Assembly (NCBI GenBank): GCA_018702955.1
Contig: JABJEK010000038.1
Location: forward strand, 128,002-192,001
Direction: 5' to 3'
Length of the DNA: 64,000 bases
Source of the DNA: Rhodospirillaceae bacterium
GTDB lineage: Bacteria; Pseudomonadota; Alphaproteobacteria; UBA6615
The notes under the pieces were generated by a model, which worked only from the letters and a program-made list of their open reading frames with translations, searched no databases and was not told where the DNA came from. Made by a program: the position numbers and the translations under genes. Of the stretch, positions 44,577 to 64,000 are shown piece after piece. Every line of letters begins with the position of its first letter. Position 1 is the first letter of the stretch.

Positions 44577-44610
44577 CCGTGGTGCGTGTCTGAACAGACG
44601 CTCACCACGG
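44577..44610. promoter_or_regulatory. nested palindrome CCGTGGTG-cgtGTCTGaaCAGACgct-CACCACGG in divergent promoter
   Basis: 8-bp perfect inverted arms flanking an internal GTCTG/CAGAC palindrome. Sits between the divergently transcribed hydrolase (start 44510) and MFS gene (start 44649). Confidence 0.35.
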
Positions 44611-44648
44611 CGCACAATTCCCGCCATCCAATCCGGTTTCGCTACTGA

Positions 44649-46537: not shown

Positions 46538-46574
46538 TGCCCTCTCCGACTTGCATGCATAGAAGGACCCCAGC

Positions 46575-47180: not shown

Positions 47181-47225
47181 ACAACACCCATTAGTCTGTC
47201 GGCGTTTTCTCGGAGGAATTTGAAT

Positions 47226-49541
47226 ATGCAGTTCGGTATTGGCCAGTCGGTCCGTCGCAAGGAAGATCCTAAGTTTCTGACCGGCCGGGGGCGTTATGTC
47301 TCCGACATGGTGTTGGCCCGCCAATCCCATGCCGTCTTCCTCTATTCCCCGTACGCGCATGCGGACATCAAATCGATCGATACGTCCGGTGCCGAAGCCG
47401 CGCCTGGCGTGATTGCCGTCCTGACGGGCGCCGACTATGTGGGCGACGGGATGGGGCCGACCGGCGGCGTCATGCCCGAAGACATGGGTGGGCCTCCCGG
47501 ACACCGGACCATGCATATGCCGCTTGCGGTTGACCGGGTGCGGTTCGTCGGTGAACGCGTGGCTGTGGTGATTGCCGAAAGCGAGGACCAGGCACGTGAT
47601 GCCGCCGAGCATGTGATCATCGACTATGCCGACCTGCCGGCTGTCGTCATGGCCGCCGACGCCGTCAAGGACGGCGCGCCGCTGGTCCATGACGAGGCGG
47701 AGAACAACGTCAGCTTCACCCTGCGCCTCGGCAACGGGGACGAGACCGACGCCGCGATCAAGGGCGCCCACCATGTGACGCGCATCAAACTCCACAACAA
47801 TCGCCTCGACGCGATGACCATGGAACCGCGCGGCTGTCTGGGTGAATTCGACACGAGCACAGGCCGCCTCACCTTTTATACAAGCACGCAAAACGTGCAT
47901 GGCATCCGCCAGGGCCTCGCGGCCCAGAATCTGAACGTGCCCGAAAGCATGATCCGCGTCGTCGCGAAGGATGTCGGCGGCGGGTTCGGCATGAAGGGTC
48001 ATGTCTATCCCGAAGAGGCTGTCGTCGCCTGGGCCTGCAAGCGTGTCGAACGCCCGGTGAAGTGGATCGCGACGCGCAGCGAAGCGATGATGGGTGACGA
48101 TCACGGGCGCGACCAGACCGTCGAGGTGGAATTGGCGCTCGACGAGAACGGCAAATTCACAGCGCTGCGCTGGCACGCCCTGCACAATGTCGGCGCCTAT
48201 ATCGAGGGCGCGGGGGCAATTCCCGTTCTGTTCGCGGTCAAGCTGGCACCGACCGTCTACAACATTCCCAACGTGGACGTGATCAACAAGGCTGTCTTCT
48301 CCAACACCTCCCCGACCGTGCCTTACCGAGGTGCGGGCCGGCCTGAGGCGGTCTACATCATGGAGCGGGTGGTCGATGCGGCCGCGCGCGAGACCGGGAT
48401 CGACCGGGCCGAGCTGCGGCGGATCAACTTCATCACACCCGAGGAAATGCCTCATTCGACCCTTACGGGCTGGACCTACGACACCGGCGATTATGCGACC
48501 GCCCTCGAAAAAGCACAGGGTATTGCCGACTGGGACGGATACAACGCACGCAAGGCTGCGACGGAAGCCAAGGGTCTAAAACGCGGCCTGGGGCTCGTCT
48601 ATTACGTCGACAACACCGGCATCTTCAACGAACGCATGGAGATCCGTTTCGACCCGAGCGGCACGGTCACGATCGTGTCCGGCGTGCTCTCGCATGGTCA
48701 GGGCCACGAGACGTCATTCTCCCAGATGCTGGCGGAATGGCTGGATATCCCGATCGAGGATGTCCGGCTGGCCCAGGCGGACACAGATGAGGTGGCCATC
48801 GGCCGCGGCACCTACGCATCGCGCTCCATGATGGTTGGCGGCAGCGCGCTCCGCGCGGCGGCGGACGAAGTTATCGAGCGCGGCAAGAAGTTCGCGGCGC
48901 ACTTCATGGAGTCCGACGCGGCCGATATCGAATTTAGCGACGGCAAATTCACGATCGCAGGCACCGACAAGGAAATGCCCCTCAAACAGGTGGCGCAGAT
49001 GTCGTTCATGCCGGTCCATGTCCCGAGCGAACTGGGTGTCGGACTGCAGGGTGTCGGCGCGTTCGCCGCGGAGGTGCCCAGCTTCCCCAACGGCTGCCAT
49101 ATCGGCGAGGTCGAGATCGATCCCGATACGGGTGCCGTACGCATCGATCGCTACACGGTCGTCGATGACATCGGCACGGTGATCAACCCGTTGCTCGCGC
49201 AGGCCCAGATCCATGGCGGCGTGGTGCAAGGCGTCGGACAGGCACTTCTTGAGGATGTCGCTTATGATCCGGAAAGTGGCCAGCTCCTTGCGGGCTCACT
49301 CATGGACTATGGCGTGCCCCGCGCGGACCTGATGCCCGAAATCAACGTCGATTTCAGTCCGGTATTCAGCAAATCGAACCCGCTCGGCGCGAAAGGCGTC
49401 GGCGAAGGTGGCACGGTCGCCGGCACGCCGACGATCGTCAACGCGATCCTCGATGCCCTGGCGGAATATGGCGTGCGGGAAATCGATACGCCGGTCACCC
49501 CGCAGCGGATCTGGCAGGCGATCCGGAAATCCGGCAGCTAG
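47226..49541 (+). CDS. xanthine dehydrogenase / aldehyde oxidase / CoxL-family molybdopterin-binding large subunit, with no small or medium subunit genes nearby
   Basis: ATG at 47226 after GGAGGA. QFGIGQSVRRKEDPKFLTGRGRYVSD...GGGFG... About 771 aa. Confidence 0.85.
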   Translation: MQFGIGQSVRRKEDPKFLTGRGRYVSDMVLARQSHAVFLYSPYAHADIKSIDTSGAEAAPGVIAVLTGADYVGDGMGPTGGVMPEDMGGPPGHRTMHMPLAVDRVRFVGERVAVVIAESEDQARDAAEHVIIDYADLPAVVMAADAVKDGAPLVHDEAENNVSFTLRLGNGDETDAAIKGAHHVTRIKLHNNRLDAMTMEPRGCLGEFDTSTGRLTFYTSTQNVHGIRQGLAAQNLNVPESMIRVVAKDVGGGFGMKGHVYPEEAVVAWACKRVERPVKWIATRSEAMMGDDHGRDQTVEVELALDENGKFTALRWHALHNVGAYIEGAGAIPVLFAVKLAPTVYNIPNVDVINKAVFSNTSPTVPYRGAGRPEAVYIMERVVDAAARETGIDRAELRRINFITPEEMPHSTLTGWTYDTGDYATALEKAQGIADWDGYNARKAATEAKGLKRGLGLVYYVDNTGIFNERMEIRFDPSGTVTIVSGVLSHGQGHETSFSQMLAEWLDIPIEDVRLAQADTDEVAIGRGTYASRSMMVGGSALRAAADEVIERGKKFAAHFMESDAADIEFSDGKFTIAGTDKEMPLKQVAQMSFMPVHVPSELGVGLQGVGAFAAEVPSFPNGCHIGEVEIDPDTGAVRIDRYTVVDDIGTVINPLLAQAQIHGGVVQGVGQALLEDVAYDPESGQLLAGSLMDYGVPRADLMPEINVDFSPVFSKSNPLGAKGVGEGGTVAGTPTIVNAILDALAEYGVREIDTPVTPQRIWQAIRKSGS

Positions 49542-49803
49542 GTCCCCCGCGCAATTGATGCGTGGCCGACACATGACACGTGCTTGGCAAGGCGAATAGG
49601 CATCGCCCGCGTGGCTGGCGTTGCCTGGAAGCCGTGCCCACCTTGCGTTCAAGCCTCACGTCATAGTGAACGGAAGGTGGGGACGAAATCGGCCCCAATT
49701 GCCCTGTTCCAGACATGAAAAGGTTGATATCGGCCATCAACCTATGGATAGTACGTGAATAATAACCGTCTTATATAAAACCAAGCCTGCCAGGGAGGGT
49801 ACC

Positions 49804-50823
49804 TTGTTCAAATCATTGAGGTATCTCGCAATTGCAGCTGCGGCGTTGCCGTTTGTTGCGACTGCCAATACGGCGAGTGCACAGGATCTCGTCGTCGCCG
49901 CCGCCGGCAATCCCGGCGGTCTTGCTGTTTTCGTGGCCCAGGAAAAGGGTTTCTTCGCGAAGAACGGCGTCGACGTGAAGGTCGAAATTCGCAACACCGG
50001 CTCGGAGCTCTCCAAGGGCCTGCGCGCGGGCGATTTTGACTTCGCACCGGCCGCCTTCACCAACCTGGGTGCCGCTCTCGAGCGTGGCCTGGATGTCCGC
50101 GGCATTGTCGGCTATGTCGGCGCGGCGTTCGAGAAATCCACCTCTGACGCAGTCGTTGCGCTCATCGCGGGCCCCAATTCCGGCATCAACTCGGTTGCGG
50201 ACCTTAAAGGCAAAAAGGTCGGCGTGACGTTCGGTTCGACCGGCGACGTTTGGCTGCTTCAGGCCCTGAAGCAAGCTGGTCTGAGCTCCAATGACGTCGA
50301 TCGCGTCAACACCCGCCCGCCGGGCCTCGTGTCCGTACTCGACACCGGTGGCGTGGATGCCATTGTTGGCTGGGAGCCGTTCAACTTCCGCGCCCTGCAA
50401 AAGGTCGCAGGTTCCAAGGAAGTCAAGCGTGGCGGCGACCTCGTTTGCTTCTGTGCTTATCTGCACGGCAACCCGGAAAGTGTCTACAAGGACGAAGCGG
50501 CAACGCAGAAGCTTGTGGACGCCATGTCCGAGGCCGCTGCGTATGTGCGCAACCCCGCTAACAAGCAGGAAGTTGCCGAGATCGGCACTCGTTTCGTCAA
50601 CATGACGAAGGAAGAAGTTCTGGCCGGCCTCGATTTCTGGGTCTACGACCCCCGGATCGGTCCGAACACGAGCGCTGCCTTCGAGAACGCCAACGCGCTT
50701 CTTCGCGAGCAGAAGAAGATGAAGAAGCCTTTCCCGGCGGCTGACTATCTGGACTCCAAGTTCATCGAATCGACGATGAAGCGGCATCCGGAGTGGTTCG
50801 CTGACCTTGGCGGCGCAAGCTAA
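49804..50823 (+). CDS. ABC transporter substrate-binding protein, NMT1/THI5-like (NitT/TauT family)
   Basis: TTG start 6 nt after GGGAGGG. Signal peptide MFKSLRYLAIAAAALPFVATANTASAQ. Confidence 0.8.
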   Translation: MFKSLRYLAIAAAALPFVATANTASAQDLVVAAAGNPGGLAVFVAQEKGFFAKNGVDVKVEIRNTGSELSKGLRAGDFDFAPAAFTNLGAALERGLDVRGIVGYVGAAFEKSTSDAVVALIAGPNSGINSVADLKGKKVGVTFGSTGDVWLLQALKQAGLSSNDVDRVNTRPPGLVSVLDTGGVDAIVGWEPFNFRALQKVAGSKEVKRGGDLVCFCAYLHGNPESVYKDEAATQKLVDAMSEAAAYVRNPANKQEVAEIGTRFVNMTKEEVLAGLDFWVYDPRIGPNTSAAFENANALLREQKKMKKPFPAADYLDSKFIESTMKRHPEWFADLGGAS

Positions 50824-50863
50824 GCCGTTAGGTATTTCAGAAGCACATCAATTTTGATGACAT

Positions 50864-50894
50864 GACGGGCGCGAAACTGTTTTTCGCGCCCGTC
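50864..50894 (+). terminator. perfect 13-bp stem-loop GACGGGCGCGAAA-loop-TTTCGCGCCCGTC between the binding-protein and ATPase genes (partial terminator/attenuator)
   Basis: Seen directly at 50864..50894. No U-tract follows, so more likely an mRNA-stabilising or partial-termination hairpin setting SBP:ATPase stoichiometry. Confidence 0.4.
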
Positions 50895-50911
50895 AAACCT
50901 TCAGGAACATC

Positions 50912-51709
50912 ATGACCACCGACGCAAAACTCATCGTTCAGGGGCTCGCCCACCACTACCCCGACGAATACACAGGTGAATCCGTTCACGCGCTGCAGGA
51001 CATCAACCTGCAGATCCACGAGAACGAGTTCGTCGCAATCGTAGGCCCCAGTGGCTGCGGAAAAACGACATTCCTCAACATCATCGCCGGCCTGCTTCCC
51101 TATCGCGAAGGCCGCGCCATGGTGGATGGTGTCGAAATTCGCGGACCGGGCCCGGACCGAGGCGTCGTGTTCCAGGAACACGCGATTCTGCCATGGCGGA
51201 CCGTAAACCGGAACATTGGTCATGGCCTCGAAATACGCAAAGTTCCCAAAGCGGAGCGCGAGCGCCGCGTGCAGGAGTATGTGGACCTGGTCGGCCTGTC
51301 CGGCTTCGAGGACCGCTACCCCCACGAACTATCCGGTGGCATGAAGCAACGTGTCGCCGTGGCCCGCACGCTCTGTGCAGATCCCGTGATTATGCTGATG
51401 GACGAGCCGTTTGCCGCCGTCGATGCACAGACCCGTATCACGCTCCAGGATGAGCTCAACCGGGTCGTCATGGCGACCAAGAAAACCATCCTGTTCATCA
51501 CTCATTCGGTCGAGGAAGCTGCCTTCCTGGGCGATCGCTGCATCGTCTTCTCGCGGCGCCCCGGCATGGTCAAATCCGAGATCAAGATCGATATTCCACG
51601 CGAAGAGCGCTTGTGGAAAGACATGGTGAACAACACCCGCTTCACCGAAGCGCGCGACGAAATCCTGAGCCTGGTGCGCTCGGAGGTCACCAGCGATGTC
51701 GACGGTTGA
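50912..51709 (+). CDS. ABC transporter ATP-binding protein (NitT/TauT family)
   Basis: Walker [23 protein letters not shown] signature, Walker B LLMDEPF. Confidence 0.9.
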
Positions 51710-52511
51710 TACCGCGCCGATCCGGCGCAAATCTTTCAAGAAAATGGTCACCGACAGCCGGGCGATCCAGCTGGTCATTCTGCTCGTCGGCGTTTTGATC
51801 CTCTGGGCCATCATCTCCGCAGTCATCGAACGCCCGGATCGATACCTTCCCTCGCCGCTCACGACGCTCTTCTCTTCCGTCGACCTGCTGCAAAAGGGCG
51901 TATTGACCAGTTTCTATGCCGACACGCTGACCCGTCTGGTAATCGGTAGCATCCTGGGAATTGGCCTCGGCATTCCGTTCGGCCTGTTGCTCGGCCTGAA
52001 TCGCAACATCGCGGACATGTTCTACCCGCTGATGAATTTCTTCCAGTCTGTGTCGGGTATCGCCATTTTCCCGGTGATCGTCATCTGGTTCGGGAATAGC
52101 AACACGACCGTGATGATCGTGATCCTGTACACGGCCTTCTTCCCGATCGCCTTCAACGTCCTATCCGGCGTTCGCTCGGTGCCAATGCGTTACATCAGCG
52201 CCGCACGCACACTTGGCGCGTCGCGGTTCCAGATCGTGAAAGACGTATTGTTGCCCGGCGCCATGCCTTCGGTCGCCATCGGGTCGCGCCTGTCTATCGG
52301 GTTCGCCTGGCGCGCCGTGATTGCCGGTGAAATGCTCGCGGGCCAGGCGGGCCTCGGCAACATGATCTTCGCGGGTCAGGAACTCGACAACACCGCACAG
52401 ATCATTCTGGGCATGATGCTCATCGGACTGACCTGGATCATGCTGGACCATTATCTACTGCGTCCGCTTGAATCCGATACCATCGAACGCTGGGGGCTCG
52501 TACAACGATGA
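51696..52511 (+). CDS. ABC transporter permease (NitT/TauT family)
   Basis: 271 aa, six TM segments, EAA-like loop. Confidence 0.85.
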
Positions 52512-53368
52512 CCGCCATTAACGAATTTTCAGTTGCCGTTCAGCGCAAATTTGGCCGTCAGCGCCTGCGCAAATTCGGCCTCGGAATCATTCCGTTCATT
52601 GTCCTGATTACCCTGTGGCACATGAACACGATCTTCGTCTGGTTCGATCCGGTGGAAATTCCGCCGATTGCAGATGTCTGGGATGCCATCTTCTGGCTCC
52701 AAAGCGATTGCCCGGGGATTCTCGCCGCTATTGAAGGCCACAATGGCTGCCAGTTGACCAACAACATCTCTTCGTCAATCGCCCGTGTGATCCTGGCGAT
52801 GGCTGTCGGTGTTCCGCTGGGTGTCGCATTCGGCATCATGGCCGGCATGAACCGCGTTGTTTCGGCTTATCTTGAGCCAATTGGCGTGTTCATGAACTCG
52901 GTCTCCGGCATTGCCTGGATCCCGCTCGCCATTGTCTGGTTCGGTGTGGGCTGGGAAACCACCCTCTTCATCATGCTGAACACGATCTTCTGGTTGCTGT
53001 TCTTCAATACGATGATGGGCGTACGCGCCGTACCAAAGGTTCTCATCCAGGGCGTATATACGCTGGGCGGAAACCGGCTCGACGCGATCCTGCAAGTCTA
53101 CCTGCCGGGGGCAATGACCTCGATTATCACCGGCCTGCGCATGTCCATGGGATTCGGCTGGCGCGCGTTGATTGCGGCCGAGATGATCGGCGGCGACAGT
53201 GGGCTGGGCTTCATGATTTTCGTATCGTCCGCAGAGTTCAAGACCGAGGAAGTCTTCCTCGGCGTGATCCTGATCTCCCTTATTTTCCTCGCGACCGACC
53301 GATGGATTCTCGTGCCACTTGAGAAGTGGACCATCGAGCGGTGGGGCCTGGTCTGGAAGCCTACTTGA
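52508..53368 (+). CDS. ABC transporter permease, second subunit
   Basis: 286 aa, paralogous to 51696..52511. Confidence 0.85.
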   Translation: MTAINEFSVAVQRKFGRQRLRKFGLGIIPFIVLITLWHMNTIFVWFDPVEIPPIADVWDAIFWLQSDCPGILAAIEGHNGCQLTNNISSSIARVILAMAVGVPLGVAFGIMAGMNRVVSAYLEPIGVFMNSVSGIAWIPLAIVWFGVGWETTLFIMLNTIFWLLFFNTMMGVRAVPKVLIQGVYTLGGNRLDAILQVYLPGAMTSIITGLRMSMGFGWRALIAAEMIGGDSGLGFMIFVSSAEFKTEEVFLGVILISLIFLATDRWILVPLEKWTIERWGLVWKPT

Positions 53369-53369
53369 T

Positions 53370-53744
53370 ATGACCTCACAAGAAATGGATGAAGTCCGCC
53401 CGGTTCGCCGGCGACGGGCTTGGTACAAACGTCGGGACATCCTGTTCATTGCGTTCGTCGCAGCCGTCTGGCTCGGCTGGGGAGGCTATGGCCTCGTGAC
53501 CGGTCCCACGCGTATCACAGATGCACTGGAAACCGCCCTCGACGCGGACCCCAAGACCGTCAATCTGCTTGTCACGGCCAAATTCAGGCCCGAACGCTTC
53601 CACTCGAACGTCTACAATAATTATGGCGTGCAGCGTGGAACCGAAGGACGGGTTACGAAACTGTTCCGGGTTCGACCATCAGGCGTCCGATGGCTCTCTC
53701 AACAGTACTGGATTGAACAGATCGACGTCATTCCACCCGAGTGA
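53370..53744 (+). CDS. hypothetical small membrane-anchored protein, translationally coupled to the permease
   Basis: ATG 53370 in TGATATG overlap with the permease stop. Arg-rich N-terminus then one TM helix (ILFIAFVAAVWLGWGGYGLV). C-terminal about 80 aa of unknown fold. Confidence 0.4.
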   Translation: MTSQEMDEVRPVRRRRAWYKRRDILFIAFVAAVWLGWGGYGLVTGPTRITDALETALDADPKTVNLLVTAKFRPERFHSNVYNNYGVQRGTEGRVTKLFRVRPSGVRWLSQQYWIEQIDVIPPE

Positions 53745-53833
53745 TCGCTAAACGGCGATTCCCTTGCCAATTGGCCGTCCGACCTTCTAAAACCCGGCTC
53801 GCATCAATTTCCAACGAGCCGGCGGCCCTACCC

Positions 53834-54724
53834 ATGAACGATGTCAGCACGCCCGACGCGCCCCAGCATTTCGACCGGCGCTATATTCTGAAACTGTCCT
53901 GTCCCGACCAACGCGGCATCGTCGCCGCTGTTGCGAGCTTCCTTGCCGAGCAGGATTGCAACATCCTGGAATCGGCGCAGTTCGACGACGAGATGTCCGG
54001 ACAATTCTTCATGCGCACCGTATTTGGTGCCGGTGTGGCAACCCCGAGCATCGACAACATCTCGGCGGCATTCGGCCCCATCGCTTCTCGTTTTGCGATG
54101 GAATGCTCGATCCATGACCTCCAGGTAAAGCCGAGGGCGCTGATTCTGGTCTCCAAACCGGGACACTGCCTGAACGATCTGCTTTACCGAACCAGTTCTG
54201 GTTCACTGGGCCTCGAGGTCGCAGGTATCGTATCCAACCACCCCGATCAGCAGCCCCTCGCCGACTTCTACAATCTCGACTATCACCACCTGCCGGTGAC
54301 GCCAGAGACCAAAGCGGGTCAGGAAGCGAAAATTCGGGATCTGATCGATGAGACCGGCGCCGACCTGATCGTCCTTGCACGTTACATGCAGATCCTGACG
54401 CCGGAGATGTGCGCGTTCCTGAGCGGCCGCTGCATCAATATCCATCATTCATTTCTGCCGGGCTTCAAGGGCGCCAAACCCTATCACCAGGCGCATGCGC
54501 GCGGGGTGAAGCTCATTGGCGCCACCGCTCACTATGTGACCCCCGATCTGGATGAAGGCCCGATCATCGAGCAGGAAACCAGCCGGGTGAGCCACGCGCA
54601 CACACCCGAGGACATGGAGCGGATCGGGCGTGATCTGGAAAGCGTCGTACTCGCCCGCGCGGTGCGCTATCACATCGAACAGCGGGTATTGCTTCGCGGC
54701 GACCGAACAGTCGTCTTTTCCTAA
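53834..54724 (+). CDS. purU: formyltetrahydrofolate deformylase
   Basis: ACT domain (YILKLSCPDQRGIVAAVASFLAEQDCNI) followed by formyltransferase core (HHSFLPGFKGAKPYHQA, GATAHYVTPDLDEGPII). Confidence 0.9.
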   Translation: MNDVSTPDAPQHFDRRYILKLSCPDQRGIVAAVASFLAEQDCNILESAQFDDEMSGQFFMRTVFGAGVATPSIDNISAAFGPIASRFAMECSIHDLQVKPRALILVSKPGHCLNDLLYRTSSGSLGLEVAGIVSNHPDQQPLADFYNLDYHHLPVTPETKAGQEAKIRDLIDETGADLIVLARYMQILTPEMCAFLSGRCINIHHSFLPGFKGAKPYHQAHARGVKLIGATAHYVTPDLDEGPIIEQETSRVSHAHTPEDMERIGRDLESVVLARAVRYHIEQRVLLRGDRTVVFS

Positions 54725-54748: not shown

Positions 54749-55267
54749 CTAGCGTTCCCGGAAGGCCTCGGACCGGGTCTTCAGTACCGGCTGAATCAAA
54801 TAATCCAGCACCCGCTTTTCGCCGGTGTGGATATCGATCGTGGCCTGCATCCCCGGAATAATCGGCAACGTCCCATCCGCCCCCAAGGTGCTATCCGTGG
54901 TCTCGACGACGACACGGAAGTAATGCTGCCCACTGCGGTCCGTATCGGCATCCGCCGCGATACTCACCACCCGTCCCTCAAGACCGCCATAGCGAACGAA
55001 ATCATAGGTGCTGACCTTCGCTACGGCCCGCTGCCCCACCTCCACATGACCGATATCGCGCGGATCCACGCGCGCCTCGATCAGAAGACGCTCGCGCGAA
55101 GGGACGATCTGCATGATTGCATCCCCCGGGCCAACAACCCCGCCAATCGTGTGATAGGACAGGTTTTGGACCACGCCCTCGATCGGACTGGCAATCACCG
55201 CGCGTGAACGTTGTTCCGTTGCTTTTACGAGGCGCTCTTGCTCGCGCGCGATTTCCAGTTCAACCAA
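54749..55267 (-). pseudogene. C-terminal fragment (~170 aa) of an HlyD-family type I secretion membrane-fusion protein
   Basis: The homologous part begins mid-domain (coiled-coil end, then ...GEKRVLDYLIQPVLKTRSEAFRER). No N-terminal TM or lipoyl region. The upstream sequence in this frame runs into the PAS ORF in a different frame. Confidence 0.6.
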
Positions 55268-57750
55268 GGTGATCTGTTCGGATGCATATCAAAGAGCAGC
55301 TCCGCAAGCTCACTGAACTCCATCCCCGGCCGCATGACATCCGCTAACTTGGGATAGAGATTCGCGTAGGCATCGTTGCTCAGAACTAACCGATCGTCCT
55401 CATCCCAAAGCAGGAAACCGTCGTGCAAGCTACCAATGGCATCTGCAAGCCGTATTTCCGCCTGCCGGATCGCGGTGATGTCCGTGCGAACGGCGACCGC
55501 TCCACCTTCTTCGGTATGACGGCGTGACACGCGCACGACACGGCCATCATCGAATCTGCGTTCAAAGTCGACTTCCTCACCGTGCATCCGGAATTGTTCT
55601 TCAATCCATTCCTCTTCACGACCGAGGGCATCCTTAACTTTCCCGCTGTATGCAAAGACACGGATCATGTCATCGAATGCCATTCCGATATGTATCTGGT
55701 CGACCGCATCGCCAAAATCTCGCGCCCAGCTGCTGTTATAGGCGGCGAGCCTGTCGTTCCCGTCGAACAACACAAAGCCATCCTGAATGGCCTCGATCGC
55801 GTCCCGCAATCGCATCTCGACCCGCTTCAGTTCGGTCGCCTCCGAGTTCAGGACAACAACACCACCATCTCGCGTATTGTTGGCCGAGACGACATAGGTG
55901 CGATCATCGGGAAAGCTAACCTCGACATCACCCTCGGGATTTCGGTGCTGCTCGACACGTTCATCGATCCACGCATCGAGATCGGAAGTATCGGGAACCA
56001 GAATACCTGTCTCGACCGCCATGCGGATCACGTCGCGGATGTTCATCCCGACTTCGATCTCGCCCCCAAGCGACTGAAACATTTCAAGATACTTGCCGTT
56101 GGCGATGACCAGACAATCATCCTTGTCGTAGAGCGCAAAGCCATCGCGCATACTTTCAATCGCATCGGTCAGGCGATATTCAGCATGCTTCATTTCGGTA
56201 ATGTCCGACCTGAGGGTCACAATGCCGCCGTCGGTGGTGCTGTGCGATGCCACCCTCAGCGTCTTCGCGCCAATCTGAAGCTCCTGCAGGGTGTGATCTA
56301 CCGCGTGCTTGGCGACCTGATTGTCTATCCACTCATCCCTGTCGATCGCATGCCCCTGCATTTCGACAAGATCAAAGGTGAACCCCATCAGCTCTCGAAA
56401 AGTGACCCCTGGCACCACCCGGTCCGCATATTCGCCAAAGTCCCGACGGTATCGCTCGTTCGCCACCACCAGACGATCATCGGCATCGTAAAGCACGAAG
56501 CCATCATTGAGGCTTTCGATCGCATCGCGCAGATGTGCCTCGGCGCGTTTGACCTCGGTGATGTCGGTACGAATACCAACGATGCAGCCATCGTGCATCC
56601 GCCGGTCCGTGATCAGAATCCAGCGACCTTCCGTTGTCTCCATTTCATGGTGCTGGCCGTTGTCTGCAGTGTGAACTACGCACATACGCTCTACCCACGC
56701 CTCCGGATCCGCAATCACCTCAGGGTCGGCGTAATGACCTGTTTCAATACCCAGGCGAAGAACATCCCTGAAATGCATGCCCGCGCCCTCCACCATCGCC
56801 GGCATGAACGGGAAAAACTCACGGTATCTGGAGTTGTAGCGAACGATCCGATCATCGGAATCATAGAGAATGAAACCATCCGAAAGAGTTTCGATCGCTT
56901 CGGCAAGAAGGCGTTCGGCCTGATCGGTTTCTGTTTTCGCCTTTTCAGCCTCGCGACGCGCCTTTCCGAGATCCTGCTCGCGCCGCCATTCCTCATCCAC
57001 ATCGCGAACCGCACAATAGAGTTGCCCCATCTGGTCAGCCGTGATGTGCCAGTCCGTCCAACGTGAGCTTCCCGAACCGTCGATCACCCGGACTTTAAAC
57101 CGTGCGGTCTCCTGCCCCGCGATCAGATTGTCGAGCGCGCGCTGAACGATTGGCTGGTCTTCCTAGAAGACCAAGTTTATCAGGGGCTCGCCAGATAATG
57201 CGGCGGCATCACGCCCCAGAATTTTTTCCCACTCCTGATTGACGGTATGAAGCCTGCCATCGCTGCCGGCCATTCCCAGAAGGTCGTCCGACAACTCGAA
57301 AAACCGCTGATAGCGCTGACGCGAGCGCGTCACATCGCGCAACGCCTCTTCATTTCGGCGCTGGTCCGTGACGTCGCGAAAACGGGTGACAAAGCCGCTT
57401 TCGATCGGTCGACCGTGAATTTCAAGAAAGGCGCCGTCCGGACGTTGGCGCGTGAGAGTATAGGCATCGCCCGGCGCGAACAATGAGATGACTTGCGTCG
57501 TTAGTTCCTCGGCATCCCCGGGTCCATAGTCTCCGCGCTCCGCCGCAAAACGTACAGACTCGATCCAATCCTGCCCCGGCTTCATGAGCTCCGCAGGTAT
57601 ATCCAGGAGTTCCTGTGCCAGCGCATTCGACGTCACGACGCGCAATTCGGAATCGAATATGATGACGCCGCCACCGAGCGTATTCAGAACACCCTGGAGC
57701 ATGCTGCTCGTATCTTGCGTCGAACCTGCCGAACTTCCGTCCATCACCAT
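55225..57750 (-). pseudogene. tandem-PAS-repeat protein (about 7 PAS modules, no output domain) split by an in-frame TAG at 57163-57165
   Basis: ORFs 57163..57795 and 55225..57087 share a frame. The 25 codons between them read EDQPIVQRALDNLIAGQETARFKVR and continue into GSGSSRWTDWH.... Repeats follow the pattern RL.DAIESL.DGF.LYD.DDRLV. The C-terminus ends abruptly against the HlyD fragment. Confidence 0.55.
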
Positions 57751-57926
57751 ACCGTCCAAGCCATCTGCACGTGGCAATTCCACTTCCCGAAACAACTCTG
57801 GGCTGTATGTTGCACAGAATTCGGGCGCGCGACGTTAACTTATTTCGCCTGGCGTCAATAAATGGTTAACAGGCGGCACAGATGCGCGGTATTCGGGTGA
57901 TTTATCAGGCTCTTAGGTGACCACTT

Positions 57927-58757
57927 CTAGTTGTTAGAGACCCACTTAACTAAACTTCCAACCCACAGTCCCTCCGCGTGACCGCAGGCATATGAGGAGC
58001 CGAGATGGTCGCAGTCCGACAGGCTAACGGTCTTAACCGTACCGCCGGCGTCTTGCAGTGCCCGCGCCATTTTTTCTGCCTGCACAATGAGGTGAGGAAA
58101 ATCCCGATCGCCCCATGCCATCAGGAATGGCGGCGTATTCGTCATCGTGTGAATCGGGCTGGCGTCGGTGTCGTTTCCAGCGTTCTCGCCCAGGAAACGG
58201 GGATTCGCAGGCATTCCATTGCCCTCGGTGAAATCATAGACACCTGAGACCGGCAGCGCGCCCCGAATGACATCGGCGGGCACGCCGGCGGCTTCCTGCC
58301 AGTCGGACCGAACGGCGAGCCACGCCGCCTGATGCCCGCCTGCAGAGTGTCCGCCCACGAAGATGCGCTCAGGGTCACCGCCATGGGCTGCGATATTGTT
58401 GTAAACCCAGGCAATCCCAGCCGCTGCATCTTCAACGCCGGCCGGCCAGATGACAGCAGGAGCCAATCGGTACCCGATACTGACGAATGTTATGCCGGCT
58501 GCCGTCAGCGCCGGGGCCATAAAGGCCATCCATTCCTTGTAGCCGTTCGTCCAGCCGCCGCCGTGCATGAACGCGACGACGGTTCCGTTCGGCTCGGGTG
58601 CGGCAAATACGGCTACTTCCTGATACGGATCATCGCCATAGGCGAAGGATTCACCACTTATGCCTGCGCCCAGTTCCTGGACACGGACATGATACTTCGC
58701 GCCGATATCGGAAAAAGGTTCCTGTGGCGGATATGAATCGAGGTCGCGAAGTCCCAT
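57927..58757 (-). CDS. alpha/beta hydrolase fold-3 (HGGG-type) esterase/deformylase, arylformamidase-like
   Basis: FMHGGGWTNGY oxyanion motif. GGHSAGGHQAAW nucleophile elbow. ATG 58755-58757 overlaps the upstream stop (ATGA). Confidence 0.8.
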   Translation of the reverse strand: MGLRDLDSYPPQEPFSDIGAKYHVRVQELGAGISGESFAYGDDPYQEVAVFAAPEPNGTVVAFMHGGGWTNGYKEWMAFMAPALTAAGITFVSIGYRLAPAVIWPAGVEDAAAGIAWVYNNIAAHGGDPERIFVGGHSAGGHQAAWLAVRSDWQEAAGVPADVIRGALPVSGVYDFTEGNGMPANPRFLGENAGNDTDASPIHTMTNTPPFLMAWGDRDFPHLIVQAEKMARALQDAGGTVKTVSLSDCDHLGSSYACGHAEGLWVGSLVKWVSNN

Positions 58758-59839
58758 CAGCGTTCCTCGCGTTCAACGATCATCTTTTCATCAACGAATT
58801 TACCGCGTTCGATCACAACTTCATTGTCGAGGAGAACGGTGCAGTCCCGCATCGGCACGTCATAGTGGCCATTCGTGCTACGGCTGCCACCGCCTTGCGT
58901 GTTCGGGCCCGTGGAGAACAGGAAATTGCCAGGGAAGGTCCGCGCTGACGCGTGGGATCGCTCGGGATTGTCTCCATGCAGGGCAATATTGTACCAACGC
59001 GACTGCGGGTTCATTCCCCAACCCAGATGAGAGACCGCGTAGGGGTCTAGGTCATCCTCGGACAGCTTGTTGTCATCGAGCCAATCGGTCATCAACTTGG
59101 CGTCGAGGCCACCCTCGACCTTACGAATAAATCCATCGCGAACCTCGAGCCTCACCTCGTCCTGCACGTAGCGGCAGTAGGGCAAAATGACGATATCGCC
59201 TGGCGACATAATGACCGTTCCATTGGCGGAACCTTCATTGGGGAATGTATGGATATGCCCCACCCCCCATTGGTCGAAATGCCCGGGCTCGTCGGAATAT
59301 CCCCACTGGCTCATCACGGGAAAATCGCCCTTCGAGTAGGTCAGATCGGTACCCGCATCACTAAGAACGCGAACTTCCTTCGTCGCGGTGTAGCGCGCGT
59401 CCGCATACTTGACCGCCTCCTTCAAACCTTTCGGTGAGAGAAGCAATTCAAGGTCATCCGGTGCATCGATGATCATCAGGAACCGGGTTCCGGTCGCCAT
59501 CACCTCGCGCAGCCAGCTCGTAAACAGTGGAATATGCAGCGCCACGACGATATCGGCGGCCTTGAGAGCATCGAGCATACCGTTGATCTGGCCGATGGTA
59601 TCAACTCCGACCTTCGTCCAGGACGGGATCATATTGACGCGCATCTCATAGCAATCCGCGCCCAGCTCGTCGGCGGCCGCGAATGCCGCCTCGACATACT
59701 CCGTGCGCGTCGTGACGTCCGACAGCAACGCGACAGTCTCGCCTTTTTTGACGTTGGACATCTGGAACTGCTTGAGAAACAGGCCGGGAATTCGCCCGGC
59801 GTTGATTTCCTGATGACGGACGGCGGCTGGCGTACGCAT
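58757..59839 (-). CDS. aminopeptidase-T-fold (COG2309) protein resembling 2,5-dihydroxypyridine 5,6-dioxygenase (NicX/Hpo type)
   Basis: 360 aa. GYSDEPGHFDQWG...GDIVILPY...VSHLGWGMNPQSRW...HGD...GNFLFSTGPNTQGGG...HYDVPMRDC matches my recollection of NicX-type Fe(II) ring-cleavage enzymes. Assigned from memory, not from a search. Confidence 0.45.
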   Translation of the reverse strand: MRTPAAVRHQEINAGRIPGLFLKQFQMSNVKKGETVALLSDVTTRTEYVEAAFAAADELGADCYEMRVNMIPSWTKVGVDTIGQINGMLDALKAADIVVALHIPLFTSWLREVMATGTRFLMIIDAPDDLELLLSPKGLKEAVKYADARYTATKEVRVLSDAGTDLTYSKGDFPVMSQWGYSDEPGHFDQWGVGHIHTFPNEGSANGTVIMSPGDIVILPYCRYVQDEVRLEVRDGFIRKVEGGLDAKLMTDWLDDNKLSEDDLDPYAVSHLGWGMNPQSRWYNIALHGDNPERSHASARTFPGNFLFSTGPNTQGGGSRSTNGHYDVPMRDCTVLLDNEVVIERGKFVDEKMIVEREER

Positions 59840-60012
59840 GGCTTTCTTCTCCGCTTCAACGGGTTGAACAATTACCTCATGCTAACCGATCCATCGGGGT
59901 GGTGCGAGACGCCACACCGATGGCTCCCCGCGACAATTCGTCAAGACATCCGCCGCCCGCTGTGCTCAGATAATTCTCTGATAATCAAAAACAGAAGTTG
60001 GGGAGAAAGACC

Positions 60013-61251
60013 ATGATGCGCGCATTCACCGAGCAAAAAATGAAGCGCTTCGCCGAGCAACGCTGGATTCTGGACGCCATCATTTCGTCGGTCGGCATGG
60101 AGTGGGATCAGCCGCGGCTAGGCTACACCATGTATCCCTGCGGCCCCGACGCCGTCGGCGATTTCCGTACTGTGGGTATGCGCACCAAGAAATTCGCGGA
60201 CATGCATCGTGAATTCGCCGGCGCAGCCAAGCGCCGCGAGATCAAGGCAAAGGCCTTCGAAGCCGAGGATCGGCTGGTCTCGGCCCGCGAGAGCTACTTC
60301 ATTGCGTCCCTGCTCTACTCCGCGGCGCGCTGGCCCATCTTCGAGGCCAATGACCTGCACAAGGACTACAACCAGCGCATGGTCGATTGCTACGACAAGT
60401 ATATCGAGTTCGCGCCGCGCCCGATCGAACGGGTGGAAATCCCCTTCGGTGACGGCGTCCTGCCGGGGTTCCTCGCGCTGCCCCACGCGCCGAAGGAGGG
60501 GGAAAAGTTCCCCTGTGCCATCGGCATCGACGGCATGGATGGATCGAAGGAGATCATGTGCTCGATGTATGGCGACAAAATGCTCGAACGCGGCATGGCG
60601 AGCTTTGTCTATGACGGTCCGGGCCAGGGCGAGTGCCCGGTCAACGGCGTGTATGTGACAAAGGATAACCATATGGAGGCCGCCCAGGCCGTCTATGACT
60701 GGCTGATCCAGCACCCGAATATCGACAAGGACCGGCTGGTCATATTCGGGATCAGCTTTGGTTCATTTTTCGGTGCCCAAGCCGCCGCCCAGTTGGGCGA
60801 CAAGGTCAAGGGTGCCGCGCTCTCCTTCGTCTGCCACGAGCCCGGCTGCTATACGATTTTCAATATGGCCGCACCGACCTTCAAATTGCGGTTCATGTTC
60901 ATGGCCAACTATGACGATGAGGCCGAGTTCGACGAATTTGCCAGCGAGTTTTCGCTGGATCCGATTGTCGACCAAATCAAATGCCCCATCCTGGTCCAGG
61001 GCGGACAGGATGAGGAACTCAGTCCGGTCGAATGTTCGGAGGACTTTGTGAACAAGCTGTCCGTTCCCAAGAAGCTGGTCTTCTATGAAGGCGAGCGCCA
61101 TGCGATCGGTGGCGGGTCTGCCGCCTATCTGGGTGAGAACTGGTACACGATGCTGGCCGACTGGTGCCTGGACAGGGTGAATGACAAACCCGCACCGAAC
61201 GAATCCGTTCTCATCAACTCGCTGGGGCAGGCCGAGGCAACGCCCTACTAG
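60013..61251 (+). CDS. alpha/beta hydrolase of the FrsA / DHPON-hydrolase-like family, copy B
   Basis: ATG 60013 after GGGAGAAAG. PIERVEIPFGDG...GISFGSFFG...DDEAEFDEFAS. Colinear with copy A (43242..44510). Confidence 0.7.
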   Translation: MMRAFTEQKMKRFAEQRWILDAIISSVGMEWDQPRLGYTMYPCGPDAVGDFRTVGMRTKKFADMHREFAGAAKRREIKAKAFEAEDRLVSARESYFIASLLYSAARWPIFEANDLHKDYNQRMVDCYDKYIEFAPRPIERVEIPFGDGVLPGFLALPHAPKEGEKFPCAIGIDGMDGSKEIMCSMYGDKMLERGMASFVYDGPGQGECPVNGVYVTKDNHMEAAQAVYDWLIQHPNIDKDRLVIFGISFGSFFGAQAAAQLGDKVKGAALSFVCHEPGCYTIFNMAAPTFKLRFMFMANYDDEAEFDEFASEFSLDPIVDQIKCPILVQGGQDEELSPVECSEDFVNKLSVPKKLVFYEGERHAIGGGSAAYLGENWYTMLADWCLDRVNDKPAPNESVLINSLGQAEATPY

Positions 61252-61267
61252 AACGCATCAACAGGCG

Positions 61268-62338
61268 TCAGAAGGCGTCGGAGAATTCCGGCGCCACGGT
61301 CGTTGCGAACCGACGCAGGGTGTCGTGGCGCACATCGCGCGGCACGCCCACGGTCGCGGGATGCACCATGATGTGATTGAAGCCGATGTCGTGCAGGCGT
61401 TCGACCTGCGCGGCAACGGTTTTCGCGCTGCCGACGAAATTATGGGCGGAGAACTTGTCGATATTCTCCGGCTTCGAGAGCGCCAGGAGATTGCCGAAAT
61501 AACGATTGAACTGTTCATAGCCCTTGATGTCGGTCCAGGGTTCGCTGTCGGCCTCGTAGTGCGCACTCTGGAGCCGAAAGAACTCGGACAGATGCTGACG
61601 GGCCAGCGCGTAGGCCTCCTCGTCGGTATCGGCCATCAGGCAATGCGCAACCACCGGACGCCGGCCGGCATCGGTGAACCCCGCGCTTTCCGCACCTTCC
61701 TTCCAACTGGCCACCATCTTTTCCAGGATGTGGAACGGGAACTGACAAATATTGAGAGGTGCGACCCCCATCGCACCCGTCAAACGCGCGCTCTCCGGGC
61801 TGCCGATGGCGCCGAATAGATGAACCCTGTCGGCTTGTGGGGTGGGCCGGATGCGAAGTGTGCGGCCGATGTTGAAATGCTCGCCCTTGTAGGTGAAGGG
61901 TTCACCCGTGAGCCCGAGACGGACAATTTCGAGGCACTCGCGCAACCGGTCGCGGGCATGCTCCATATTCACGTCAAACGCGTCATACTCCATCTTCGCC
62001 GTTCCCCGGCCGATACCGATTAACAATTCAGCCTCGGTCAGATTACTCAGCATGGAGATTTCACCCATCAGACGCAGCGGGTGATACCAAGGCGCGACCA
62101 GCACCGAACTACCAAAACTCAGGCCCGGGCAGTGGGCGGCGACATGAGACATGAACAGAAGCGGGCTGGGTGTCGGGAAATAGTCCGAGAAATGATGTTC
62201 GAGCATCCAGGCGCTATCGTAACCGAGAGACTGGCCCAGCTTGCAGTCCGTGATGACCTCCTGATACAGCGCCGCGTCATCAAGGCCGCTGGCACCGACC
62301 GGCGCCACAACGAAACCAAATTTCAGACTGTCCGACAT
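61268..62338 (-). CDS. LLM-class flavin-dependent oxidoreductase, third and more divergent copy
   Basis: ATG 62336-62338 (MSDSLKFGFVVAPVG...LGYDSAWMLEHHF...). Confidence 0.85.
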   Translation of the reverse strand: MSDSLKFGFVVAPVGASGLDDAALYQEVITDCKLGQSLGYDSAWMLEHHFSDYFPTPSPLLFMSHVAAHCPGLSFGSSVLVAPWYHPLRLMGEISMLSNLTEAELLIGIGRGTAKMEYDAFDVNMEHARDRLRECLEIVRLGLTGEPFTYKGEHFNIGRTLRIRPTPQADRVHLFGAIGSPESARLTGAMGVAPLNICQFPFHILEKMVASWKEGAESAGFTDAGRRPVVAHCLMADTDEEAYALARQHLSEFFRLQSAHYEADSEPWTDIKGYEQFNRYFGNLLALSKPENIDKFSAHNFVGSAKTVAAQVERLHDIGFNHIMVHPATVGVPRDVRHDTLRRFATTVAPEFSDAF

Positions 62339-62492
62339 GTCCTTTTTCGCGCCATGCGCGCTCCCTTGGAAAAACCGTAACACCCGTGACACACCAACCC
62401 CACCGGTTTTCCGTCGTGCCCTCTGTGTCCAAAATCATTGACGCAGGCGCTCCTGGCCCCGTTCAATACGAAGGCACAGGGGGAGCTATGCC

Positions 62493-63419
62493 ATGTATAT
62501 CGATCCGCAGATCAAAAGCTTTATCGACGGCCTCGCCGAGCTGGATATGCCGCACCCGGTCGAACTCGGCCTCGAGGAAACCCGGAACGGATTTAGTCAG
62601 CTCTGGCAGCAGGTCAATCCGCCGTCACGCGAACTGGCCAAGATCGAGGATATCCAGGTGCCCGGTCCCGCCGGAGACATCCGCACGAAAGTCTACACAC
62701 CGGCCGGGGACGGCCCCTTCCCCGTGCTCGCATTCTTTCACGGCGGCGGTTGCTGCATGATGGCGCCCGAGGATTATGACGGGACGAATACAGCGTTGGC
62801 CGAAGACGCCAGTTGTATCGTCGTCGTGCCGGCCTATCGCCGCGCGCCCGAGAACCCCTTTCCGGCACCGTTGGAAGACTGTTTTGCCGTATTCACCTGG
62901 CTGCAGGCGAATGCCGCCGACATCGGCGGTGACCCAAACCGTATCGCGATTGCGGGAGACAGCGGTGGTGGCTATCTGGCGGCGGCCGTGGCCCAGGAGG
63001 CAAAGCGCGAAAGTGCAGCCCAGCCCCTCACCCAGATCCTGATCTATCCGATGACGGACATGGGCGGCCTGCCACCGAGCCGGGTCGAGGAGACGATGTT
63101 TCTTGATGACCGCACCCTGCAATGGGTCATCGGCATGCATGTAGGCGAACACCGGCTCGATCCGCGCGCCTCACCGATTTTGGAGCCCGACGTGTCGGGC
63201 CTGGCGCCGGCGCTCGTGATTGCGGCACAGATCGACCCGCTGCGTGACGAAGGCCGGGCCTATGCCTCGAAACTTCAGAACGCGGGCGTACCTGTGCAGT
63301 ACCAGATCTACGACGGGGTGGTGCACGGCTTCTTCAGCATGGGCGGCTTTTGCGACCAGGGAAATGTCGCGGTGGCCCAGGTCGTGGACGCGCTCAAGAG
63401 CGCGTTCGCCCGCAACTAA
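62493..63419 (+). CDS. alpha/beta hydrolase fold-3 esterase/lipase (HGGG, GDSGGG)
   Basis: 308 aa. FFHGGGCCM, IAGDSGGGYLAAAV, C-terminal DPLRDEG and H triad. Confidence 0.85.
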   Translation: MYIDPQIKSFIDGLAELDMPHPVELGLEETRNGFSQLWQQVNPPSRELAKIEDIQVPGPAGDIRTKVYTPAGDGPFPVLAFFHGGGCCMMAPEDYDGTNTALAEDASCIVVVPAYRRAPENPFPAPLEDCFAVFTWLQANAADIGGDPNRIAIAGDSGGGYLAAAVAQEAKRESAAQPLTQILIYPMTDMGGLPPSRVEETMFLDDRTLQWVIGMHVGEHRLDPRASPILEPDVSGLAPALVIAAQIDPLRDEGRAYASKLQNAGVPVQYQIYDGVVHGFFSMGGFCDQGNVAVAQVVDALKSAFARN

Positions 63420-63468
63420 CATCCGTTCCCAAGGTCCGCTTCACACTCGATGCTATGCGCTGACGCGT

Positions 63469-64000
63469 CTAGAAAAGGAAATCGTCATCGTGGAGCGAAG
63501 CACGGTTGACGCCGATAAGCGTGATTTCGCTACCGGCACCCGTATCAATGATCGTGTCGGCGCCGTTCTGGCTTGAAGCATCAAGCAGTTCGGCCATGTC
63601 ATCGATGGTTGTAACGCCCGACAAGTCCAACCGGTCGTCGCTTCCCGCACCTGCAGCGAAGTCCATGACCCGGTCCGATCCGTCGCCGTCGGAGAAAACA
63701 AACAGGTCATCACCGCCATCGCCATAGAGCGTATCGTTGCCCAGATCGCCGTCGAGGATGTCGTTGCCGCCGCCACCCCGTATCAGGTTGTTCCCGACAT
63801 TGCCCGTGATCGTGTTGGCCTGGCCATCACCCGTCGCTTGAGTGTTACCGCCCCCCTGCATATCGATGATCTCGACACCGTTCGCCACGAAGATCGAACC
63901 CCACAGCTCGACCCTGTCGACACCGCTCGTGCCGCTGTCGTTGATCGTGTCGATCACGCCGACGATGTAGGTGTCACTGCCTTCGCCGCCATCCAGCAGG
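63469..64000 (-). CDS. RTX / haemolysin-type calcium-binding repeat protein, C-terminal part (gene continues beyond the right edge)
   Basis: GGGNDILDGDLGNDTLYGDGGDD nonapeptide repeats then a C-terminal secretion-signal-like tail. Stop at 63469. Confidence 0.7.
   Translation of the reverse strand, partial: LLDGGEGSDTYIVGVIDTINDSGTSGVDRVELWGSIFVANGVEIIDMQGGGNTQATGDGQANTITGNVGNNLIRGGGGNDILDGDLGNDTLYGDGGDDLFVFSDGDGSDRVMDFAAGAGSDDRLDLSGVTTIDDMAELLDASSQNGADTIIDTGAGSEITLIGVNRASLHDDDFLF

Follow-up and report, generated by a model that had tools for sequence, protein, structure and literature searches.

Organization of the locus

We describe a five-gene cluster in a 64,000-nucleotide stretch of a Rhodospirillaceae bacterium genome (assembly GCA_018702955.1, contig JABJEK010000038.1, positions 128,002 to 192,001 of the forward strand), hereafter the window, in whose own numbering coordinates are given. 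The five genes occupy a 5.5-kb segment and form four transcription units: A and B lie together on the minus strand, followed by C on the plus strand, D on the minus strand and E on the plus strand. All five open reading frames (ORFs) called in an initial annotation, made from the sequence alone, are present. Gene A (57927-58757, minus strand) encodes a 276-residue α/β hydrolase fold-3 serine hydrolase, and gene B (58757-59839, minus strand) a 360-residue protein that we assign to the NicX family of Fe(II) ring-cleavage dioxygenases. The remaining three encode an FrsA-like α/β hydrolase, a luciferase-like flavin monooxygenase and a second fold-3 esterase. B and A constitute a conserved two-gene module, whose proposed task is to open, and then trim, a hydroxylated pyridine-type ring.

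B is a NicX-family protein with an altered substrate pocket

Searched against solved structures, B matches Pseudomonas putida NicX (PDB 7cn3; phmmer E 4.4e-62 over residues 17-349), with a BLASTP identity of 35%, and NicX is the sole group of structures that it matches. The public protein identical to B carries a precomputed assignment to the Pfam family PF26233 (NicX), while Pfam and NCBIfam profile scans of B returned no match, Peptidase_M29 included, and no M29 aminopeptidase structure was matched up to E 1. NicX binds Fe(II) through His265, Ser302, His318 and Asp320, and its substrate site is formed by Leu104, His105, Glu177 and His189, with Glu308 and Arg293 nearby (PMC7910607). The corresponding predicted ligands of B are His271, Ser309, His325 and Asp327, a quartet that is invariant in 121 of 121 close homologues. 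The initial annotation had likewise placed B with NicX rather than with M29 peptidases, citing C-terminal motifs; SHLGWG and GNFLFSTGPNT are indeed present, and the HGD motif that it also cited is not a metal site.

These observations bear on the possibility that B is an aminopeptidase of the M29/COG2309 fold serving peptide or ester use, with A, C and E as unrelated neighbouring esterases. The 'leucyl aminopeptidase' label that some database records attach to distant family members, and weak Pfam matches of C and A to peptidase families S9 and S15, speak for such a reading. It is effectively refuted by the missing M29 matches and the invariant NicX iron site, together with the reciprocal synteny of B and A, the molybdenum (Mo) hydroxylase operons described below and the lack of conserved peptide transporters or peptidases near the module.

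The substrate pocket has diverged from that of NicX. At the NicX substrate-site positions B has Leu105, Phe106, Met176, Gln178, Gln190 and Gln315; the equivalents of NicX Leu104 and Arg293 are retained, and the hydrogen-bond network of His105, Glu177 and His189 together with Glu308 is not preserved. Glu177, which faces the ring nitrogen in NicX (PMC7910607), is replaced by Gln in 121 of 121 members of the B subfamily, and Glu308 by Gln in 114 of 121, where NicX and three homologues from canonical contexts keep both residues. His189 is kept by most of the subfamily and is Gln in the sub-clade of the window. Residue comparison therefore predicts conserved metal chemistry in a pocket that has shed two negative charges, which may reflect adaptation to a differently protonated, more acidic or more substituted substrate. 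His105Phe was considered as a further marker of specificity and dropped, since Phe also stands at this position in homologues from canonical nic clusters (Azospirillum, Cupriavidus and Caballeronia) and the H105F variant of NicX stays active (PMC7910607).

The changed pocket is central to whether the module performs canonical chemistry, in which B would act as a 2,5-dihydroxypyridine (2,5-DHP) 5,6-dioxygenase yielding N-formylmaleamate, A would deformylate this product to maleamate and formate, and the enzymes for maleamate would be encoded elsewhere. This is a narrow special case of the general model that we favour, and it draws strength from 2,5-DHP being the sole substrate reported for the NicX family (PMC7910607), from the conserved iron ligands, Leu104 and Arg293, and from the uninformative nature of Phe at position 105. 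It is also consistent with an HpdA-like hydroxylase in sister operons, which would turn 3-hydroxypyridine into 2,5-DHP, and with the automatic arylformamidase labels on A homologues. Against it stand E177Q and E308Q, set beside Glu at both positions in four of four canonical-context or solved homologues, as well as H189Q in the clade of the window, the identity to NicX of only 35% and the lack of linked NicF and NicE genes in about 120 loci. Given the changed pocket residues and the lack of a maleamate amidase or isomerase nearby, plain 2,5-DHP is a possible but not an assured substrate, and we hold strictly canonical chemistry to be on the unlikely side. The initial annotation had proposed the conversion of 2,5-DHP to N-formylmaleamate; family and iron site agree with it, and the three pocket substitutions leave the reaction itself conjectural.

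The B subfamily is large: at E up to 1e-5 it yields 1759 clusters in the database, a good number of them at least 70% identical. Farther off, a NicX-family gene on the Rhodococcus pyridinivorans YF3 plasmid (NZ_CP040721, 5977-6990; locus L127) also has Gln at position 177. It lies in an hpo-like 2-hydroxypyridine dioxygenase cluster with genes for an isochorismatase, a C-N hydrolase and an Asp/Glu racemase and without one for an α/β hydrolase, which hints that some NicX-family members may cleave a triol with no need of a deformylase.

A is a fold-3 hydrolase from a lineage other than NicD

A matches Pfam Abhydrolase_3 (E 7e-25, 88.5 bits against a cut-off of 25) and BD-FAE (2.5e-21). It carries the HGGG oxyanion motif at residues 65-68 and GHSAGG at residues 136-141, with Ser138 as the nucleophile, both motifs as listed in the initial annotation. 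His65 to Gly68, Ser138, Asp219 and His251 are invariant among 42 orthologues. The AlphaFold model of A has a pLDDT of 94.6, and its best Foldseek matches are short esterases (feruloyl and carboxyl) at a template-modelling (TM) score of 0.81. The kynurenine formamidase of Drosophila (4e15) appears at ranks 33-41 in the same search, with TM scores of 0.76-0.78 and 18-19% identity, and kynurenine formamidase falls outside the best 60 sequence matches of A. Automatic labels of A homologues in IMG switch between 'arylformamidase' and 'acetyl esterase/lipase'. The earlier description of A as an arylformamidase-type enzyme therefore holds as far as the fold-3 serine hydrolase class; within that class, the modelled structure does not separate A from ordinary short carboxylesterases.

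BLASTP between A and the NicD-like protein of a canonical Azospirillum nic cluster gave no alignment up to E 10, in keeping with the suggestion that A belongs to another lineage. If A does the same job as NicD, this lack of similarity to the NicD-type hydrolase would make it a non-orthologous replacement. Such a substitution is chemically plausible, as N-formylmaleamate can be deformylated by generic serine α/β hydrolases (PMC13230308).

Homologues of A at 54-59% identity also occur without a NicX-like neighbour, at five loci (L070, L075, L083, L087 and L090). Their neighbours encode an FmdA/AmdA formamidase/acetamidase, an Amidohydro_2 protein, a coenzyme A (CoA) ligase, a small Rieske protein, a fumarylacetoacetate (FAA) hydrolase and a different Mo hydroxylase. 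These loci look like another uncharacterised cluster that resembles the catabolism of nitrogen compounds.

B and A form a conserved module

The junction between the two genes (58755-58768, minus strand) is compact. The TGA stop codon of B (58759-58757) and the ATG start codon of A (58757-58755) share one base, the strand reading CGC TGATG GGA, which gives TGATG rather than the four-nucleotide ATGA overlap first reported, and a GAGGA Shine-Dalgarno sequence lies 6 nt upstream at 58768-58764. The coupling itself, which had been the core of the earlier description, is both present and conserved, with B and A separated by 0-10 nt in orthologous loci as well.

Pairing was assessed in both directions at loci with enough flanking DNA to be informative, anchoring on B in contigs from one genome per species and on A in metagenome contigs. 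An A orthologue is found in 26 of 30 B-anchored loci, directly adjacent in 20 of the 26, and B is present at 32 of 36 A-anchored loci. The pairing persists at identities of 49-70% for B and 47-60% for A, with 49% for B and 47-53% for A at the lower limit, and the divergent pairs come from Candidatus Binataceae, one Burkholderiales metagenome-assembled genome (MAG) and contigs from soil, peat, compost and freshwater. Because the adjacency recurs in dozens of independent loci, it is not due to chance. The module recurs in many uncultured marine and soil bacteria.

Two architectures in relatives

Relatives carry the module in two arrangements. The first is marine, with B proteins 76-100% identical to that of the window. 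Here B and A are read in one direction, C lies divergently upstream (with a TetR gene of the same orientation as C between C and B in some loci), and E, also in the orientation of C, marks the far end. Between C and E stands D, a flavin reductase gene or nothing, with D or the reductase gene in the orientation of B. A marine sub-clade that retains His189 has the flavin reductase at the position of D.

The second arrangement, found on more than 10 independent contigs from soil, sediment, compost, freshwater and some marine samples, has B proteins of 61-73% identity. A divergent TetR gene is followed in the direction of B by B, an SRPBCC/CoxG gene, the flavin adenine dinucleotide (FAD), 2Fe-2S and Mo large subunit genes of a hydroxylase, and A, after which comes a LIV-type ATP-binding cassette (ABC) transporter. 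The hydroxylase lies between B and A in L040, L041, L043, L078, L080, L085, L091, L092, L100, L101 and L105, and an overlap of A with the end of the Mo gene is frequent. Short forms with a divergent TetR gene, B, A and the transporter occur in L098, L114 and L121. The cluster of the window has no Mo large subunit, FAD, 2Fe-2S or SRPBCC gene beside B. The only Mo large subunit gene in the window (47220-49541) encodes a protein 31% identical to those of the second arrangement, and its partner subunits are absent.

Among PDB entries, the Mo large subunit of these sister operons scores highest with 4-hydroxybenzoyl-CoA reductase (407 bits), against 280 bits for the nicotinate dehydrogenase large chain, whose match is confined to the first half of the query, and about 268 bits for quinoline and ketone dehydrogenases. 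Some sister operons also hold genes for a deaminase-type amidohydrolase and an enzyme of the dimethylarginine dimethylaminohydrolase/arginine deiminase (DDAH/ADI) type, and the Binataceae loci contain an isochorismatase (NicF family) and a PF04199 cyclase (HpoH family). A few genes downstream, marine relatives have genes for an FAA hydrolase, a glutathione S-transferase (GST) and a glyoxalase-family protein. Upstream, many marine loci have xanthine dehydrogenase and TypA genes, which were set aside as reflecting the shared ancestry of close genomes, not function.

The Mo hydroxylases, TetR regulators and LIV-type transporters that accompany the pair in relatives fit the earlier view of a heteroaromatic rather than a peptide-utilization locus, and no conserved neighbour suggests peptide use. 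The canonical nic cluster of Azospirillum likewise has a LIV-type transporter and a TetR regulator. HpdA of Ensifer adhaerens HP1 is a four-component 3-hydroxypyridine dehydrogenase with a separate SRPBCC subunit, and the 2,5-DHP that it makes goes to a NicX-type dioxygenase (bioRxiv 10.1101/2020.01.08.898148). Judged by gene content, this context supports a putative role of the module in the catabolism of N-heteroaromatic compounds.

Genes C, D and E

Gene C (60013-61251, plus strand) encodes a protein of 412 residues. Its ORF opens at 59998, and the ATG at 60013 is the likely start, as called in the near-identical contig L001. Pfam places C with FrsA-like hydrolases, and its nucleophile elbow reads GISFG. 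The closest solved relatives are Ayg1 (6e-15), an Ayg1-like protein (4e-13), 2,6-dihydroxypseudooxynicotine (DHPON) hydrolase (2jbw, 5e-12) and two AntI structures (down to 3e-11), a group that outranks FrsA and peptidases in the PDB search. These matches assign C to the DHPON hydrolase/Ayg1/AntI group of retro-Claisen C-C hydrolases, in agreement with its first description as DHPON-hydrolase-like. No gene of the marine cluster is better conserved than C (85-98% identity). Two operons of the Mo hydroxylase arrangement carry an FrsA-type hydrolase gene in the place of CoxG, its product 26% identical to C (L106, 2223-3419; L124, 3192-4424), so that a C-type hydrolase appears to be a recurrent partner beyond the marine clade.

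Gene D (61268-62392, minus strand) has a probable start at 62338, matching the 356-residue protein of L001. Its product matches Pfam Bac_luciferase (1.2e-48) and reaches no subfamily at its cut-off in an NCBIfam scan. D had been proposed as a luciferase-like monooxygenase belonging to the island; the gene is there, and its membership is optional, as it occurs in only part of the marine loci, others having a flavin reductase gene in its place, or neither. Gene E (62493-63419, plus strand) is the second esterase of the earlier description, a 308-residue fold-3 protein of the hormone-sensitive-lipase type (Pfam Abhydrolase_3, 2.5e-62; best PDB match Est8 4ypv, 1e-68; NCBIfam LipP1 at 298 bits, under the cut-off of 350). 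It is found with the cluster in most marine loci.

The relatives of C and of the Mo subunit also lend some credit to a substrate that is not a pyridine. B would then be a hydroquinone-type ring-cleaving dioxygenase, its substrate an aromatic diol with a carbocyclic or oxygen-containing ring (for example an acyl-hydroquinone or a polyketide-derived phenol), with A hydrolysing an ester or lactone of the product and C shortening an acyl side chain in the manner of Ayg1 and AntI. Glu177, whose carboxylate points to the ring nitrogen in NicX, is gone, and C matches the polyketide-shortening enzymes Ayg1 and AntI, fungal and bacterial, at least as well as DHPON hydrolase. The kinship of the sister-operon Mo subunit with 4-hydroxybenzoyl-CoA reductase, the FAA hydrolase, GST and glyoxalase-family genes of the marine relatives, and the feruloyl and carboxyl esterases that head the structural matches of A point the same way. 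However, carbocycle cleavage is not known for any member of the NicX family, and hydroxylases with a separate SRPBCC subunit together with LIV-type transporters mark N-heterocycle clusters. The B-less homologues of A sit in a nitrogen-compound context (formamidase/acetamidase, Amidohydro_2, Mo hydroxylase), and deaminase-type and DDAH/ADI-type enzymes occur in some sister operons. We therefore consider a carbocyclic or oxygen-containing substrate improbable and retain a pyridine-type ring as the preferred substrate class.

Control regions

The divergent region between B and C (59840-60012) contains an inverted repeat with 15-nt arms (59888-59902 and 59912-59926; 87% complementary, 9-nt spacer) and two GATAAT hexamers just upstream of C (59969-59974 and 59980-59985), 5 nt apart. 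The closest marine loci share a conserved GATTATC...ATTATC element. Unlike many relatives, the cluster of the window has no TetR gene. The sequence TTCGNTATTGAC occurs in 16 loci, all of them TetR-bearing and belonging to both architectures (L004, L013-L015, L019, L040, L042, L043, L052, L078, L085, L100, L101, L105/L106 and L121), mostly 73-93 nt upstream of B, and totals 21 occurrences in 1.9 Mb of locus sequence; it was not found in the B/C region of the window, which has lost both this motif and the TetR gene. With the look of half an operator and a -35 box, it is a likely TetR operator that overlaps the -35 box, and its position ahead of B in both architectures suggests shared regulatory logic. 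An Rfam scan of 57000-64000 found no riboswitch, and a scan for sigma-70 consensus promoters returned nothing.

Surroundings in the window

The window is 99.9% identical to a contig of the marine MAG GCA_018668895.1, and contig L001 differs from it at 14 positions over 14.9 kb. Five of the 14 differences fall inside B, in a stretch of 52 nt (58997-59048), and leave the B protein the same, which points to a small recombination patch or strong purifying selection. Directly downstream of A, a PAS-domain sensor gene (55225-57795, minus strand) is split into ORFs of 210 and 620 residues by a stop codon at 57163-57165; at 57165 L001 carries G where the window has A, and its gene is intact with 825 residues. 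Strain variation, a pseudogene or an error in sequencing may account for the split. Several relatives have PAS and hybrid histidine kinase genes after A. The cluster is flanked by a truncated HlyD-type fragment (172 residues, 54749-55267, minus strand) and an ORF with RTX calcium-binding repeats (63469-63957, minus strand), which look like remnants of a type I secretion locus and suggest rearrangement around the module in this genome. PurU (53741-54724) was considered as a pathway member by analogy with pAO1 and is taken as coincidental, since other loci do not keep it beside the module.

Farther away, a 3-hydroxyanthranilate 3,4-dioxygenase gene of the kynurenine/quinolinate branch (20343-21179, minus strand) suggests that the organism processes pyridine precursors that derive from tryptophan. 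A possible second catabolic island spans 41703-53368. It comprises an amidohydrolase gene (41703-43196, minus strand), a C paralogue of 34% identity (43242 to about 44510, minus strand), genes for a major facilitator superfamily (MFS) transporter (44649-45845, plus strand) and a SnoaL_4 protein (46575-47180, plus strand), the lone Mo-hydroxylase large subunit gene mentioned above (47220-49541, plus strand; FAD and 2Fe-2S partners absent) and an NMT1-type ABC transporter (49804-53368). The C paralogue lies inside an 832-residue ORF (43242-45740) that we reject as a single gene: the frame is over-extended, and the real gene is its last ~420 codons.

Proposed function

In the general model that we propose, and to which we assign a probability of about 0.6, the B/A module opens a hydroxylated pyridine-type ring and then trims it. 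B, with its NicX fold and Fe(II), would cleave a para-diol of the 2,5-DHP type between a hydroxylated carbon and the carbon adjacent to nitrogen, giving a compound of the N-acyl (N-formyl) maleamate type. A, made by coupled translation from the same mRNA, would remove the N-formyl or N-acyl group, or split an equivalent labile acyl bond, and so perform the job of NicD/Nfo from an unrelated hydrolase lineage. The source of the diol would differ by lineage. For most soil and freshwater relatives it may be a Mo hydroxylase acting on an imported hydroxypyridine-type compound. The marine lineage probably relies instead on the retro-Claisen activity predicted for C and on the esterase E to free the diol from a precursor that is acylated or esterified, in some cases aided by a flavin monooxygenase, and D or the flavin reductase could help release or hydroxylate the ring. 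The Gln-containing pocket and the lack of a linked maleamate amidase or isomerase suggest that the module may act on a diol that is more acidic or substituted than plain 2,5-DHP, for example a trihydroxy- or carboxypyridine. The downstream route would then depart from the canonical maleamate pathway or be encoded elsewhere. The module is probably an undescribed variant of pyridine-compound breakdown.

Several findings weigh against this proposal. The pocket substitutions at NicX positions 177, 308 and 189, the esterase-like structure of A and the resemblance of the sister-operon Mo subunit to 4-hydroxybenzoyl-CoA reductase are set out above. To our knowledge, neither the B nor the A subfamily has a characterised member. 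A tblastn search of B against 72,556 plasmids gave only matches below 40% identity, and no close homologue was found among those of cultured strains. Searches with Azospirillum NicC, NicD, NicE and NicF (tblastn) found no match in the window, including the NicF- and NicE-like genes for maleamate amidase and maleate isomerase whose absence the initial annotation had noticed, and weak matches in only 3 of about 120 related loci. Finally, C, D and E lie in transcription units apart from B/A, and their link to the module is synteny in one fairly narrow marine clade, the C-like genes of L106 and L124 being the exception.

A more specific and bolder combination holds that B cleaves an N-heteroaromatic diol or triol other than 2,5-DHP, that a three-enzyme operon built on it is widespread, and that marine bacteria run a retro-Claisen version. 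The VLFMQ[H/Q]...Q pocket would accommodate candidates such as 2,3,6-trihydroxypyridine or a carboxylated dihydroxypyridine. B, A and the four-component Mo hydroxylase resembling 4-hydroxybenzoyl-CoA reductase would form a pyridine-mineralising operon of soil and freshwater bacteria, and marine alphaproteobacteria would arrive at that intermediate from an acylated natural product, by way of a retro-Claisen C-C hydrolase. We put this combination forward tentatively and think it doubtful that all of its parts hold together. Homarine or trigonelline catabolism was also considered as the marine function and rejected, as the published hom operon consists of TgnAB-like flavin enzymes with no NicX-family gene (PMC13236597).

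The locus exposes a large and uncharacterised NicX subfamily with fixed pocket substitutions, a hydrolase partner from outside the NicD lineage and two alternative 'feeder' modules. Pyridine rings of NAD, vitamin B6, alkaloids and picolinates are a steady source of nitrogen and carbon, and identifying the substrate would add a new branch of N-heterocycle catabolism in abundant uncultured marine and soil bacteria. The Glu-to-Gln swaps are directly testable and make the subfamily a natural experiment on pocket specificity in NicX. Being both large and environmentally widespread, the subfamily is a worthwhile biochemical target, and our results do not overturn current understanding.

Comparison with known systems

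The nearest described counterparts are NicX and NicD of the P. putida KT2440 nic cluster and the Hpo/Nfo system of strain S16. B is a full-length homologue of NicX with the same Fe(II) ligands and with Leu104 and Arg293 kept, and the canonical clusters of Azospirillum and Cupriavidus place the dioxygenase gene beside a serine α/β hydrolase gene, as B and A are placed here. The differences lie in the 35% identity to NicX, the replacement of Glu177 and Glu308, and of His189 in the clade of the window, by Gln, and the fold-3 nature of A (HGGG/GxSAG), which has no BLAST similarity to the NicD-like protein. B precedes A with overlapping stop and start codons, and NicC, NicF and NicE are absent. The locus lacks two features by which genuine 2,5-DHP dioxygenase loci are recognised: Glu at pocket positions 177 and 308, and linkage to NicD, NicF and NicE.

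C finds its counterparts in DHPON hydrolase (DHPONH; 2jbw) of Paenarthrobacter nicotinovorans pAO1, Ayg1 and AntI, which share the FrsA-like α/β fold and are its best solved matches, at a weak similarity of 46-58 bits. The pAO1 enzyme frees a dihydroxypyridine from an acyl side chain, as C might do in the marine cluster; however, its product is 2,6-dihydroxypyridine, a compound that NicX does not use, and a NicX-family gene is missing from pAO1.

The hpo cluster of Rhodococcus rhodochrous PY11, for 2-hydroxypyridine, and that of the R. pyridinivorans YF3 plasmid exemplify the opening of a diol or triol ring after hydroxylation. PY11 opens 2,3,6-trihydroxypyridine hydrolytically by HpoH and not by a dioxygenase, and the YF3 NicX-family protein shares only 36% identity with B and lacks a partner of the fold-3 hydrolase type. 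The likeness resides in Gln177 of the YF3 protein and in the PF04199 cyclase of the HpoH family that accompanies B/A relatives in Binataceae.

The 3hpd cluster of E. adhaerens HP1 combines HpdA1-A4 with the HpdBCDE maleamate pathway. The window cluster differs in having no four-component hydroxylase, and the sister operons differ in lacking HpdC-, HpdD- and HpdE-type genes and proteins of the phosphoenolpyruvate (PEP)-utilising type, as well as in their 4-hydroxybenzoyl-CoA-reductase-like Mo subunit. By described gene arrangement, rather than by sequence, those sister loci (L040, L041, L043, L078 and others) nevertheless resemble the HpdA system, with large, FAD, 2Fe-2S and separate SRPBCC/CoxG subunit genes standing beside a NicX-family gene.

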